Shown: positions 7,166 through 63,878 of the stretch, in pieces | Layout: each line of letters begins with the position of its first letter | How positions within the stretch are numbered: the first letter of the stretch is position 1 | Assembly: GCF_006345805.1 (NCBI RefSeq) | Contig: NW_021833276.1 | Coordinates: forward strand, 1-64,000 | Direction: 5' to 3' | DNA length: 64,000 nt | Source of the DNA: Octopus sinensis | Taxonomy: Eukaryota | Program-made: the position numbers and the translations under genes | The notes under the pieces: model-generated | What the model was told of the DNA's origin: nothing | Databases searched by the model: none | Seen by the model: only the letters and a program-made list of their open reading frames with translations

Positions 7166-7216
7166 GCCACATACGGACCTAGGTTTCAAGGTATTTGCCT
7201 ATTATCAACGCATGGC
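7166..7216 (-). ncRNA. Type I hammerhead ribozyme, U3-A8 core variant (left arm)
   Basis: Reverse-complement copy of 7381-7431. Confidence 0.75.
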
Positions 7217-7380
7217 AGGCACCGCTCTCCGATGAATAACTCTCTGTGCAGGCTATATTTAAAGATTTTCACAGTAATACATCAGTAAATGTATTTACTG
7301 TGAAAATCTGTAAATGTATTTACTGTGAAAATCTTTAAATATAGCCTGCACAGAGAGTTATTCATCGGAGAGCGGTGCCT

Positions 7381-7431
7381 GCCATGCGTTGATAATAGGC
7401 AAATACCTTGAAACCTAGGTCCGTATGTGGC
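7381..7431 (+). ncRNA. Type I hammerhead ribozyme, U3-A8 core variant (right arm)
   Basis: gcc-atgcg-TTGATAA-t-agg-caaata-cct-t-GAAA-cctagg-TC-cgtat-gt-ggc: helix I atgcg/cgtat, palindromic helix III acctaggt, GUC site. Confidence 0.75.
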
Positions 7432-7743
7432 ATCCGCTTCTTCGGGGAATGATATCCCTTTGCAGGCTAGAGGACACCGTGATGGTGTCAGCCCTCCTGG
7501 TGACGTTGAGGATCGCCTGGGGCTAAATGCATCAGTAACACCCCCACCGCCCTGCCCTGTCCCTAGCCACATTCAGATTGGCTGATGTCCCTTATGTTAT
7601 TTTTTCGCTTATTTTATTTAAAAACTACTCGTTGGAATTCAACGGAATTTCCACAGAATGATAGCAACAGGTATATGCGCATGGTGTTTAAAAACGTAAA
7701 GTATAAACAAACTGCGGCCATTTCCATGATTTCCACGAACTTT

Positions 7744-8480
7744 CAGTGTTCCAAATTATTAACAAGTGGCCTAATAATCGTATAATTATAGGTCATAAAT
7801 GTGACTTAACTGCTCTAGAGAAATCTGGTATTACTTCTGAACTTACAAAAGGTAAATCAACAATATAAATATCTAAAAATCTAAAATGATTGGAAGATAC
7901 CCCCAAACTGTGAAAAAAATTGTTACAGCTCTTACGAAGAAACGTAAGAGAGCCGACAATGGTCAGCTGAGGGATGTTCGTCAACGTTCTTTGTCACGAA
8001 TTAAACTTGAGGCTGATAGTTGGAGCAAGGGATGGGTTGTAAATGGATGAGATCGTCACCAACGCTTGAGACGGCAACAAATGGAGGCATCATTATTTGG
8101 GTTAGCATTATTGGAGGAATTATGGTTGGTCCTTGGAAAATGCCAGGCGGTTTAAAATGACCGCGGATGCTTATATAGTCTTTCTGAGGGAACACCTTGA
8201 ACCTTGGTTAAAAAGCCAAAGGATCACCTTCAAGACAACCATAATATTCATGCAAGATAATGCGTCCTCACACTCAGCGAAGAAGACTACACAGTATCTG
8301 CAGCAATTAGGCTTCTGTGGATTTTAGAAGATGAAGGGGCCTACCTGTTACCTCAACTTAAACCCAATAAGAAACTTGTGGCGTATTCTAAAGCGACGAG
8401 TTTACGAGAATGGACGTCAATTTAGGAGGAAGGACGAACTTTGGTAGGTAATAGTGGATGTATCTCGTATAACATTAGTA
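7744..8480 (+). mobile_element. Decayed Tc1 (DD34E-type) transposon fragment
   Basis: KMTADAYIVFLREHLEPWLKSQ..IIFMQDNASSHSAKKT followed by LNP..NLWRILKRRVYENGRQF; a CAGTG-starting TIR-like sequence at 7744. Confidence 0.75.
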
Positions 8481-8589
8481 AAGATTCAGAAACCAGCATG
8501 TTCCGTGGACCATCACATTTTGACATTGAATATCTTGAAAACTATTAAAGACATAAAAACGCATCTGATATTTTCCGAAAACCTGCAAT

Positions 8590-59682: not shown

Positions 59683-59799
59683 TGATAGAAGGAAAACAGA
59701 ATTGATAGAACGAAAACAGAATTGATAGAAGGAAAACAGAATTGACAGAAGGAAAACAGAATTGATAGAAGGAAAACAGAATTGATAGAAGGAAAACAG
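59683..59799 (+). repeat. 20-bp minisatellite (tgatagaaggaaaacagaat), about 6 copies
   Basis: Read directly; there are no spacers. Confidence 0.92.
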
Positions 59800-60478
59800 G
59801 ACTACCCCAGTGTGTTCATGGTCAATTCCATTGCAACAAAATAAAACTAAAATATGCAATAAGAAAAGCGTAATGGTAAAGTCAACCCCGGCGGCATTTG
59901 AATTAATGATAATATATATTGATACAAATTCTGCCGAAGTTACTTTGCCTTTCCTCCTTTCAGGATCGGTAAAATAAGTACCTGTCTCGCATTGGGGTCA
60001 ATGTAATCGACTAGCGTCCCCAACCAACATTTCAGGCGTTGTGCTCTTGTTAAAAAGGAATATATTGATACGACAGGTAACATAATTTATAGATCAGCGG
60101 TAAGATCGGAAACACGAAACTCTGAGTAACAGTTTTTGTGATAGTTTTGCTGCTTTTTGATCAAGTAGACATATATTATATATATAATATATATATATAT
60201 ATATATATATATATATATATATATATATATTATATATATATATTTATATACATATATATATATACATATGTATATATATATATATATATATATATATATA
60301 TATATATATATATATATATGTATATATATGTAATATATAACATATATATAATAATATATATATATATATATATATATATATATATATATATGAAAACAAG
60401 TGGATTGTATTCACCGAAGCTAGGTAATAAAACCTTCGAACAGAGATTGTCGGAAGCGACACCTACTGGTCTGACTAC

Positions 60479-60520
60479 GCTACATTGAAAAGGGGCAATA
60501 CCCCGAAACGCGTCTGTAGC
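60479..60520 (+). ncRNA. Type I minimal hammerhead ribozyme, U3-A8 core variant
   Basis: gctaca-TTGAAAA-gggg-caata-cccc-GAAA-cgcg-TC-tgtagc: helices I and II perfect, palindromic helix III acgcgt, GUC site. Confidence 0.82.
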
Positions 60521-60857
60521 TGTCGGTCAAGTAGTGTGGAGCGACTGACCTCCCTTGTTCGAAGGTTATATGGATACAGTTTGTGTATCAAATAGCTAAC
60601 TTAAGGCGATGGCCTCATGGAGCTAATAAGCGGACAGCTTTATTCTTATTTTTATAAGAATGCCATATTAGTATGGCGATAACTATTATATATATGTATA
60701 ATATATATGTATAATATATATATATATATCTATAATATATATATATATATATATATATATATATATATATATATATATATATATGTATATATATATTATT
60801 ATATATATATAATATATATATATATATATATATATATATATATAATAATATGATTTT

Positions 60858-63800
60858 TCAAGTCAAAATAGAAAATGCTAAAATAATTTTATAAAGAACA
60901 TTTCAGTACGGTTTTCGGTCCTTTTGAGACCTTTCAACTGTAACGATTAAATATTAAATTTAGAAAAACTAGAAGAAAAGTTTTTTTAAAGGATATTTGT
61001 ATAGTAGTGTTCAAATATAAGTGGCATTCTGCCTTTCTCTGACTCCCTTGTTTGCACTTGTGTGTTCGAGGTCGTTGTGAATTCTTGGTAGGGTAGAAGA
61101 AGAAGAAGGCTGAAGAGAGAGGGGGTGGAAGATTTGGGAGTGCCTTGATTGTTGTATTTTGAATGGTCAGTGACGGCTAGCAGTTGCAGTTCAATTCAGG
61201 AGAATATTTCTATTGAATATTTGTTTATGGAATTTGCGTAGGTGTTTTACTAAAAAGCATTAGTGATAAAGTTAAGAGGTAGAAGGTGGAGCAGAAGAAG
61301 AAGAAGAAGATGACGATGTTGATGATGATGAGATGATGAAGAAGAAGAAGAAGAGAAGAAGAAGAGAAGGAGAGAAGAAGAAGATGATGATGATGAGATG
61401 GTGGTGATGATGATGACGATGATGATGATAATGATGATGATGAAGAAGAGAGGAAGAAGAAGAAACACAGAAAGGGAGAATATGAATGGGTGAAAGTAGT
61501 GAGGTGTTTGTATGACTTGAAGTTGGCATGTTATGAACCCTACGATACAGACTGATCTCTAGATATCCTATGACTAGGTTGGCAAGAGGGGGGCCATTCG
61601 TGTACCCAACGCAGTCGCCGATTTTTGTCGGTAGAAGTTGTCATTGAAGGCGAAGAAGTATTTTTCCAGGATGAATTTAACCCCTTCTATCACGAATTCT
61701 TTTTTGATGCGATGTGGTAGTTCGTTGGCGTGATTCTCTAGCCAGAATTGTATTGCCTCTAGTCCTAGGTTGTGGGGGATATTGGAGTAGAGTTTGACTA
61801 CATCGAAGGATACCAGTATGGTGTTTTTGTTTTATATTTCGGTAGGTGATTGAGCATATCCAAGTCGTCCCTTATATAGCTTTTGACATGTTTGAGGAGT
61901 GGTTTTAACAGGGTGTCTAAAAAGTTACTGAGGCGGTGGGTTTCGCATGCGGGACCTGCTATTTTGGGTTAAATTCATCCTGGAAAATAACTTCTTCGCC
62001 TTCAATGACAACTTCTACCGACAAAAATCGGCGACTGCGATGGGTACACGAAATGCCCCCTCCTTTGCCAACCTAGTCATAGGATATCTAGAGATCAATC
62101 TGTATCGTAGGGTTCTAGAAAGATATGGCAGCCCTTTCTCTATCTACATAGAAAACAACTGGAAGAGATATCTAGATGACTGTTTCATCCTTTGGCATGA
62201 AAATATTGAGAAACTCATAGAATTCCAGAAATTTAAACGGCCTGGACGTAAACATCCAATTCACGATGGAATACAGCCAGCACCAACTCCCCTTCCTCGA
62301 TATCCTCATTAAGAAAGCTAATAATGTAATAGAAACAGACATATATTAATAAACCTACAGACCTAAGCAATATCTCCATCATTCATGCCACCCCAGACAC
62401 CACCAGGATGAATATCCCCTTCACTCTAGCAAAAAGGATATGCACTATAGTCTCTAATGCAAACACCAGAGACTCACGACTACAAGAACTAAAAGATACC
62501 CTTATCACCAGGAACTATCCACCTTCACTTATTGACAAGTGCATTCAACTTGCCCTTCAACTTAACATCAAGGAACTGAGACATCCCAAATCAAAAAGAA
62601 AAACTTACTACCAAAAGCCTTACCATACCTTCTCCATACACACCCTCTCAATAACGAAGCCCCTCCCAGCACCATCCTCCACAACATACCCCTCCTAAAA
62701 AAGACCACAAAATGAACACAATTCCTCCAAACACACACGATCATAAAGCAAGAGACAGCCTAGATCCATGAAACACAAGCCCGAATTCACTCTTCAACAC
62801 AGAAGCCGACAGTAAAAAAATGTGAGACCCAATTGCGGGATATGCGACTATCTAATGAGGGATCAGAGTTCTCCTTCAAACAGGGACAACGGTTCACAGT
62901 GAAAAGCAACTTCACATGTGTTTCGGAGAACCTAATATACTCACTAACCTGCTCCGGGTGTCAAGAGCAGTACGTAGGCCAAACAAAATATAGTTTGCGT
63001 AAAAGAATGGCCCTGCACAGATCCCAATAAAAATCCCCAAAACAGAAAAATAGCTTTCAGCCAACACATAGATACTTGCGCCAACACAAACACCAGCTTC
63101 AGGATTTTCCCCCTCTACCAATTTAGGGACGATACAAACCTCGAGACAACGAATAAGTAAAGAACTCTCTTTATTACAAATACAGGCCACTTCTTAACGG
63201 ATCTACGACAAACGACTAATATACCTCAACTTTAGAATAAAAGAAATACACACACAATATTACATTCCAAAGAATCCATTACTAATCAGCCCCAGTCCAC
63301 AGCTATAATCCATAACATGCCAACTTCAAGTCATACAACACCTCACTACTTTCACCCATTCATATTCTCCCTTCTCTGTTTTCTTCTTCTTCCTCTTCTT
63401 CTTCATCATCATCATTATCATCATCATCGTCATCGTCATCACCACCATCATCATCATCATCTTCTTCTTCTCCTTCTCCTTCTTCTTCTTCTTCTTCTTC
63501 TTCTTCTTCTTCTTCATCATCATGATCATCATCATCAACATCGTCATCTTCTTTCTTCTTCTTCTTCTTCTTCTTCTGCTCCACCTTCTACCTCTTAACT
63601 TTATCACTAATGCTTTTTAGTAAAACAGCCTTCTTCTTCTTCTACCCTACCAAGAATTCACAACGACCTCAAACACACAAGTGCAAACAAGGGAATCAGA
63701 GACAGGCAGAATGCCACTTATATTTGAACACTACTATACAAATATTCCTTTAAAAAACTTTTCTACTAATTTTTCTAAATTTAATTATTTAATCGTTACA

Positions 63801-63878
63801 GTTGAAAAGTCTCAAAATGACCGAAACCGTACTGAAATGTTCTTTATAAAATTATTTTAGCATTTTCTATTTTGACTT
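60858..63878. mobile_element. Penelope-like element (Neptune-type) in head-to-head inverted configuration with two pLTRs
   Basis: The + arm (about 61965-63878) has TAMGTRNAPSFANL, WKRYLDDCF and FTCVSENLIYSLTCSGCQEQYVGQT (GIY-YIG with CxxC). The - arm (60858-61945) has RT LVSFDVVKLYSNIPH plus a pLTR complementary to about 63312-63878. Both ends lie in (TA)n. Confidence 0.9.
63799..63834 (+). ncRNA. pLTR hammerhead motif, U3-A8 variant (mirror copy at 60904-60940, minus strand)
   Basis: cag-TTGAAAA-gtc-tcaaaat-gacc-GAAA-ccg-TA-ctg; both copies have 1-nt indels relative to an ideal fold. Confidence 0.62.

Follow-up and report, generated by a model that had tools for sequence, protein, structure and literature searches.

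Hammerhead ribozymes whose core carries a U3-A8 pair in place of C3-G8 have been described before. A natural U3-A8 pair was reported in 2011 'in several examples', with activity in vitro, as was a natural U10.1-U11.1 (PMC3088659), and a descriptor search in 2014 gave about 1,300 hits for U3-A8 in Penelope elements of Schistosoma (PMC4209133). Here we analyse hammerhead-fold motifs of Octopus sinensis, starting from the first 64,000 nt of contig NW_021833276.1 (the whole stretch analysed, hereafter the window). Three families of type I motif in the window, A, B and C, have U3-A8 cores; A and B lie in retrozyme-like elements and C in a Penelope-like element, and all three are likely still to self-cleave in processing element RNA. 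They belong with known retrozyme and Penelope hammerheads and their core variant is already published, so that U3-A8 itself is not new. What this genome contributes is that a likely wobble intermediate, U3·G8, is kept beside C3-G8 and U3-A8 within one lineage, that of family A.

The Cercyon Penelope elements of Schistosoma mansoni (PMC4209133) show the same core covariation in their 3' repeats, together with a palindromic helix III and mirror pairs 100-700 bp apart. Figure S3 of that paper contains UUGAUAAA and UUGAAAAA cores in S. mansoni, which are both of the cores seen here, and a U3·G8 core in a Saccoglossus Penelope element. The Cercyon motifs are minimal, lack loop 3 and carry an additional base after A9, whereas helix III of the octopus motifs has a palindromic insert of 2-4 nt. 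Furthermore, the octopus host element is Neptune-like, and two of the three octopus families are non-coding tandem units. These two, A and B, resemble the metazoan non-long-terminal-repeat retrozymes (PMC7229834; mussel 350-390 bp, axolotl 330/350 bp) in unit length, tandem arrays, a GC content below 50%, a 6-bp helix I, a 4-bp helix II and a self-paired circular fold; helix II of the axolotl motif HHR_Amex2 also has U·U at its base, like that of A. In contrast, the available parts of that report do not mention U3-A8 or U3·G8 cores, and circular RNA expression was shown there whereas A and B are known here from sequence. Similarly, the core variants of PMC3088659 are rare, mostly non-repeat examples, whereas the octopus has thousands of copies and a within-lineage series. 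Our searches of the hammerhead literature on this animal group found no description of these families.

The window was scanned with a hammerhead descriptor in which positions 3 and 8 were left free. Ten rows were returned, two of them alternative registers of A and two others chance-like, and the scan reproduced the previously proposed cores and cut sites of both A copies, B and the plus-strand copy of C. The motifs are as follows:

7166-7216, minus strand: family A hammerhead motif, a mirror identical to the plus copy; core TTGATAA at 7208; predicted cut at 7176.
7381-7431, plus strand: family A type I hammerhead motif; core UUGAUAA (TTGATAA) at 7389-7395; U·U closes helix II; helix III palindromic; GUC triplet; predicted cut after 7421.
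25858-26380, both strands: inverted pair of canonical C3-G8 hammerhead motifs; cores at 26228 (plus) and 26003 (minus); long loop II; GAAAUUGG-type helix III.
60479-60520, plus strand: family B type I hammerhead motif; core UUGAAAA (TTGAAAA) at 60485-60491; 4-bp G-C helix II; palindromic helix III; GUC triplet; predicted cut after 60514.
63799-63834, plus strand: family C hammerhead motif in a 3' repeat; core UUGAAAA (TTGAAAA) at 63802-63808; GUA triplet; predicted cut after 63831; one G missing at each of two places compared with most copies.

The canonical C3-G8 pair provides a comparison element in the same window that was absent from the original prediction, which had been made from the window alone. 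In all three families the 3-8 pair is U-A, and the closing pair of helix II is G10.1-C11.1 in B and C and U10.1·U11.1 in A. The residues of a type I core (U4 G5 A6 A9, G12 A13 A14 A15.1, U16.1 and H17) are present in every motif except a short mirror of C, and three helices surround the core with open ends in helix I, which in C has only 3-4 bp. This mirror (about 60905-60940, minus strand) had been taken for an intact TTGAAAA motif; it reads TTGAAAG, one A short, and was missed by the scan. The plus copy of C is one G short in helix II and one in helix III compared with nearly all other copies, and its helix III is not palindromic as assembled. Either homopolymer assembly error or decay would explain the missing G residues and the short mirror core. 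Rfam hammerhead models gave no gathering-score hit in 13 loci, 3 canonical C3-G8 relatives included, and so do not discriminate; they gave no hit for B at an E-value of 10 and none among the 150 of 175 rows listed for the window.

To determine the state of each family, exact patterns with N at positions 3, 7 and 8 were searched throughout the genome (2.72 Gb, microsatellite-rich), with reversed patterns as controls, and bases at 3 and 8 were counted by hand in the first 100 matches listed in genome order. The B pattern matched at 1,375 places, the C pattern at 1,813 and the A pattern at 174, whereas no control matched. The matches counted comprised 98 U3-A8, 1 C3·A8 and 1 G3·A8 for B; 99 U3-A8 and 1 C3·A8 for C; and 73 U3-A8, 25 U3·G8, 1 U3·C8 and 1 A3·A8 for A. 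U3-A8 is thus the family state of B, C and the window's A subfamily, not a private mutation of these copies, and a CUGANGA consensus is ruled out for all three. The counts also confirm that strict CUGANGA searches would miss such motifs. A genome-wide search for a non-A base at position 8, with patterns slightly unlike the exact ones, found 3 B copies in 6 rows and 8 C copies in 27 rows.

U3-A8 does not dominate a small sample of the genome. In 80 evenly spaced 10-kb stretches (800 kb) a strict descriptor gave 10 hits, compared with 1 in the reversed sequence: 3 C3-G8, 2 U3-A8, 2 G3-C8, 2 C3·A8 and 1 A3·G8, a sample too small for a genome-wide share. One of the C3·A8 hits is a single mutant of a C3-G8 subfamily in lineage A. 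A general pattern gave 81 U3-A8 among 100 listed rows, a figure we set aside as a genome-wide share since B and C had served to design the pattern. At L141:8748, L025, L296 and L297 there are additional U3-A8 motifs whose triplets are GUA or GUU; their helices differ, they lie at 3' ends before (TA)n, and they probably belong to other Penelope families.

Lineage A provided the evidence that bears on the pair itself. A wider A pattern matched the genome 2,713 times (control, 33), and the first 100 matches listed comprised, by hand count, 48 C3-G8, 26 U3·G8, 24 U3-A8, 1 C3·A8 and 1 C3·U8. Subfamilies that occupy several loci therefore exist for U3·G8 and U3-A8 but not for C3·A8. Of the two single mutants with which the original prediction wished U3-A8 compared, C3·A8 is scarce, but U3·G8 is not rare and spreads. 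The A8>G variant is also present in contigs of two other data sets. Because the lineage holds C3-G8, U3·G8 and U3-A8 subfamilies and almost no C3·A8, the series supports selection on the 3-8 pair, acting through a wobble step. The proposal that a double covariation reflects selection rather than decay is supported in this form by lineage A; the route appears to have been by wobble, not by a double jump, and conservation in B and C is uninformative.

To place these states on a tree, 60 stretches from the wider A list and 20 from the exact A list were used, of which 133 of 162 rows were kept after duplicates and rows shorter than 140 nt had been dropped. The tree was built from 175 nt downstream of helix II, so that positions 3 and 8 were excluded; it is unrooted and its bootstrap had not settled. 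A fully supported branch splits C3 from U3 rows, with the U3·G8 rows nearest the C3-G8 side. Position 3 changes only twice on the tree, once at one deep split and once in a single copy. Position 8 changes 12 times, 10 of them on the U3 side and 2 on the C3 side, both of the latter in single copies. A CpG at 7-8 occurs in 11 of 36 C3-side rows, as on the U3 side. Grouping the U3-A8 rows as one clade was rejected (p-AU 3e-41).

The fold around the pair has also been kept. In lineage A, 149 of 156 parsed rows keep a self-complementary helix III, with 11 different sequences represented, and its pieces form an intermolecular duplex of -8.9 to -12.8 kcal/mol. A palindromic, duplex-forming helix III would suit cleavage as a dimer. 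In 20 rows hand-picked to span the A subfamilies, with the C3·A8 and C3·U8 singletons left out, 95.6% of cells pair and 6 of 15 pairs change on both sides, compared with 17-52% pairing in slid controls; the 3-8 pair was C-G in 8 of these rows, U-A in 6 and U·G in 6. A Fisher test on the helix III rows was not used, since it would count related copies as independent.

These data bear on the idea that the hammerheads are passengers, whose cleavage no longer counts and whose U3-A8 core became fixed, through drift or mutation of the CpG type, in a small number of master copies whose spread had other causes. Such a history would fit the 95-98% identity among B and C copies, the CpG that contains G8 in many A copies, and the spread of U3·G8 and of U·U, G·U and C·A at 10.1-11.1; moreover, hammerhead mutants of a Penelope element had no effect on insertion in vitro (PMC11167929). 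We nevertheless regard it as unlikely. U4, G5, A6, A9, GAAA and U16.1 are fixed across A subfamilies that blastn cannot align beyond 12 nt, although most of these were required by the search pattern itself; helix III, which the pattern did not require, stays palindromic as its sequence changes; and no C3·A8 subfamily has formed, although the same CpG is present.

Several points weigh against retained cleavage or against selection on the pair. Cleavage is a prediction from sequence, and isolated motifs fold barely better than shuffled ones (z -0.35 to -1.86). The Penelope hammerhead in PMC11167929 was dispensable for insertion in vitro, cut only with the protein present and left no ends in RNA-seq. 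In C, U3 could mispair with A17, by analogy with C3-G17 (PMC3884650). The best copies of B and C are 97-98% and 94-97% identical to the window, respectively, and this uniformity is recent spread; since the copies are young and every position is conserved, it is no proof of selection. In lineage A, the 10.1-11.1 pair drifts, being unpaired in 8 of the 20 picked rows. The skew at position 8 is weak as a raw count, 10 of 12 changes falling on 57% of the branch length (2.86 versus 2.15; one-sided binomial about 0.06); position 7 is skewed likewise (17 versus 4 changes); the U3 side was sampled more deeply than the C3 side; and template switching could mimic repeated changes at position 8. That C3-G8 is the ancestral state is a premise from outside these data, the tree being unrooted.

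The original prediction went further, holding that three unrelated families had independently made the double change to U3-A8 and that they represent a large unseen ribozyme class. C has no detectable sequence in common with A or B (z 0.4 and 0.2), in keeping with that view, as is the rejection of a single U3-A8 clade in lineage A. However, local alignment of A and B outside the ribozyme gave z 5.6, and B matched a profile of 22 natural A-lineage units with the ribozyme removed, collinearly and with 12.5 bits (E 5e-4), where the top score among 200 shuffles was -3.4. Thus there are two lineages rather than three, A and B being distantly related on this sequence evidence. Furthermore, the change passes by a wobble step, only 2 of the 10 strict hits in the 800-kb sample were U3-A8, and the variant had been sought and published in Penelope elements in 2014. 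We therefore consider this version very improbable: its argument for selection is upheld, by evidence other than its own, but 'unrelated' and 'hidden class' are not. Other families also show both states. B has U3·G8 relatives at L295 and L302 (z 14.7 and 6.0), and a C-like family holds both (L296 versus L306 and L308), its tie to C being weak (the U3 ones, z up to 3.8). C-like motifs with C3-G8 (12 of 27 rows) could not be linked to C through their flanks (L301 and L310, z below 2).

The A and B motifs belong to two insertions:

6955-7600: family A insertion, in which a 356-nt retrozyme-like unit is present twice, as 5'-truncated copies inverted to one another (minus arm, about 6955-7277; plus arm, about 7320-7600); the arms stop 221 and 178 nt past the cut sites, at the two ends that this family favours.
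60392-60689, plus strand: family B insertion, a 5'-truncated copy of a 362-nt retrozyme-like unit in a (TA)n tract; left edge approximate.

Elsewhere the units occur in tandem (A, GC 0.47; B, GC 0.41), with B arrays of up to 9 full units; with one type I hammerhead per unit, they lie within the size range of metazoan retrozymes (about 170-400 nt). No open reading frame (ORF) of 120 aa was found in A, and the only one over B reads through the TA tract. Circular folds of the units are 62-65% paired (z -3.2 for A and -7.5 for B, versus 40 shuffles). The insertions have two fixed 3' ends. Of 30 B ends, 18 lie 172-176 nt and 12 lie 234-237 nt past the cut site; for A (45 ends), 22 lie at 174-178 nt and 15 at 218-222 nt. 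Mirror pairs often use one end site in each arm, as in the window. Most insertions are in (TA)n, into which 25 of 30 B ends and 26 of 45 A ends run and which would mask target-site duplications. In PMC11167929 the tail signature of a Penelope element was traced to two internal sites at which its protein starts reverse transcription. Because the two fixed internal 3' ends match this signature, A and B were likely, by analogy, mobilised by some Penelope element.

Parts of A and B are present in contigs assembled from runs guessed to be RNA, contigs which can show neither ends nor expression; among the runs recorded as containing B, none was listed as RNA. One contig of 392 nt doubles back on itself (X9, X18) and was considered as a circle, but a tandem DNA array fits equally. 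In one B array (L279, C1:28192000-28196200) intact and helix-II-mismatched units alternate, and in another (L280) there is a higher-order period of four units with intact motifs; the dimer circle suggested by the former was dropped in view of the latter. In run X2 one depth-5 contig covering window positions 60432-60562 folds back on itself and has six A>G changes absent from the other three runs. These could be A-to-I editing of an inverted transcript, the run being only guessed to be RNA and having no matched DNA.

Family C lies in the 3' repeat of a Neptune-like Penelope element, an assignment made from domain and motif features:

60859-61960, minus strand: inverted arm of the Penelope-like element, the mirror of its 3' end (with the damaged C motif) joined to a reverse transcriptase (RT) fragment.
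61966-63250, plus strand: 3' half of the Penelope-like ORF, with the end of the RT, a CX4CX2C linker and GIY-YIG; frameshifted as assembled and 93% identical to copies with long open frames.
63894-63919, plus strand: optional 3' tail of the Penelope-like element, at this end only; the tail is found in 9 of 16 distinct C ends.

The window copy is 5'-truncated, inverted and frameshifted. The proposed link of C to a coding Neptune-type element holds at another locus, L101, where a 784-codon stop-free frame with RVT_1 and GIY-YIG matches is followed about 680 nt downstream by a C hammerhead. Its translation contains the CX4CX2C linker and CCHH, read by eye against the definition in PMC8557442. The element has the traits of a Neptune type: a single ORF with the RT before a C-terminal GIY-YIG, a 3' repeat with a hammerhead, an inverted truncated copy, an optional tail and a microsatellite target. 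Indeed, the Neptune elements of PMC8557442 share with C the RT, a CX2-5CxxC linker and, at the C terminus, GIY-YIG with CCHH, as well as an inverted 5'-truncated copy, a one-sided tail and microsatellite targets, a comparison made by features. Named homologues of the protein include bivalve proteins, and no named Neptune reference was among the 120 homologues listed. The B insertion adjoins the Penelope element in one (TA)n tract (60200-63950), and the same pairing occurs at L016, consistent with a shared target. At L082:1929-3047, a 373-codon open frame with no Pfam match lies near a C end and is possibly an upstream ORF of the Penelope element.

These results suggest a model whereby the A, B and C motifs would self-cleave slowly, probably as dimers, and so process the RNA of their elements. 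Tandem transcripts would be cut to unit length and then probably circularised, and a Penelope protein would copy the unit RNA into (TA)n tracts from either of two internal start sites. U3-A8 would have derived from C3-G8 via a U3·G8 wobble that was tolerated; thereafter position 8 may toggle between G and A, while C3·A8 copies would not spread. The fold and the 3-8 pair might instead be kept for a job other than cutting, for example to bind the Penelope protein or to position it on the RNA; a Penelope hammerhead did reach its cutting state only with the protein (PMC11167929), and even dimers of minimal Penelope hammerheads are poor cutters (PMC4209133). Nevertheless, it is the catalytic bases that are conserved, A, C or U is retained at position 17, helix III covaries as dimer cleavage needs, and retrozymes of this size from mussel and axolotl cut and circularise (PMC7229834). 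A purely non-cutting role thus seems to us distinctly improbable.

The 800-kb sample also led to a G3-C8 family outside the window, with 1,726 exact genome matches (control, 0); the first 100 listed comprised 92 G3-C8 and 8 single changes. Its loci (L203-L218, L284-L292, L130 and L141) are short, often inverted insertions. The motif has a full core, one additional base after A9, G10.1-C11.1, a helix I of 7 bp, UUU as its triplet and a helix III that is a weak A-U palindrome (-2.6 kcal/mol), and loop II variants of it have spread while the core is fixed. In the loci examined there was no tandem unit of this family and no Penelope ORF 5' of its motifs; a 369-nt spacing in L288, considered as such a unit, proved to be an inversion. 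Engineered G3-C8 pairs partly restore activity (PMC11167929; PMC8495972; PMC3884650). No natural G3-C8 was found in full-text literature searches or in those rows of figure S3 of PMC4209133 that were covered, which does not establish its absence from print. We tentatively suggest, at slightly less than even odds, that this genome is a natural experiment on the 3-8 pair, in which elements spread with C-G, U-A, G-C and U·G but never with C·A.

Other mobile elements were noted in the window. Two long interspersed nuclear element copies, about 92% identical and in opposite orientation (16268-20736, minus; 50148-54580, plus), encode APE endonuclease, RT and zf-RVT, and an older fragment lies at 22551-23747. 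The segments 8676-9185 and 35594-36163 (both minus) are remnants with helix-turn-helix matches typical of Tc1/mariner transposases.

For genomes of this kind, hammerhead surveys that rely on CUGANGA overlook thousands of motifs, since B and C alone give more than 3,000 exact U3-A8 pattern matches. If the suggestion of a natural experiment is true, the evolutionary path of a catalytic base pair has been recorded here, and the G3-C8 family would be the first high-copy natural hammerhead of its kind. Lineage A itself provides natural C3-G8, U3·G8 and U3-A8 versions in one sequence background, and so lets the role of hammerhead cleavage in Penelope-driven mobility be judged against which variants spread.

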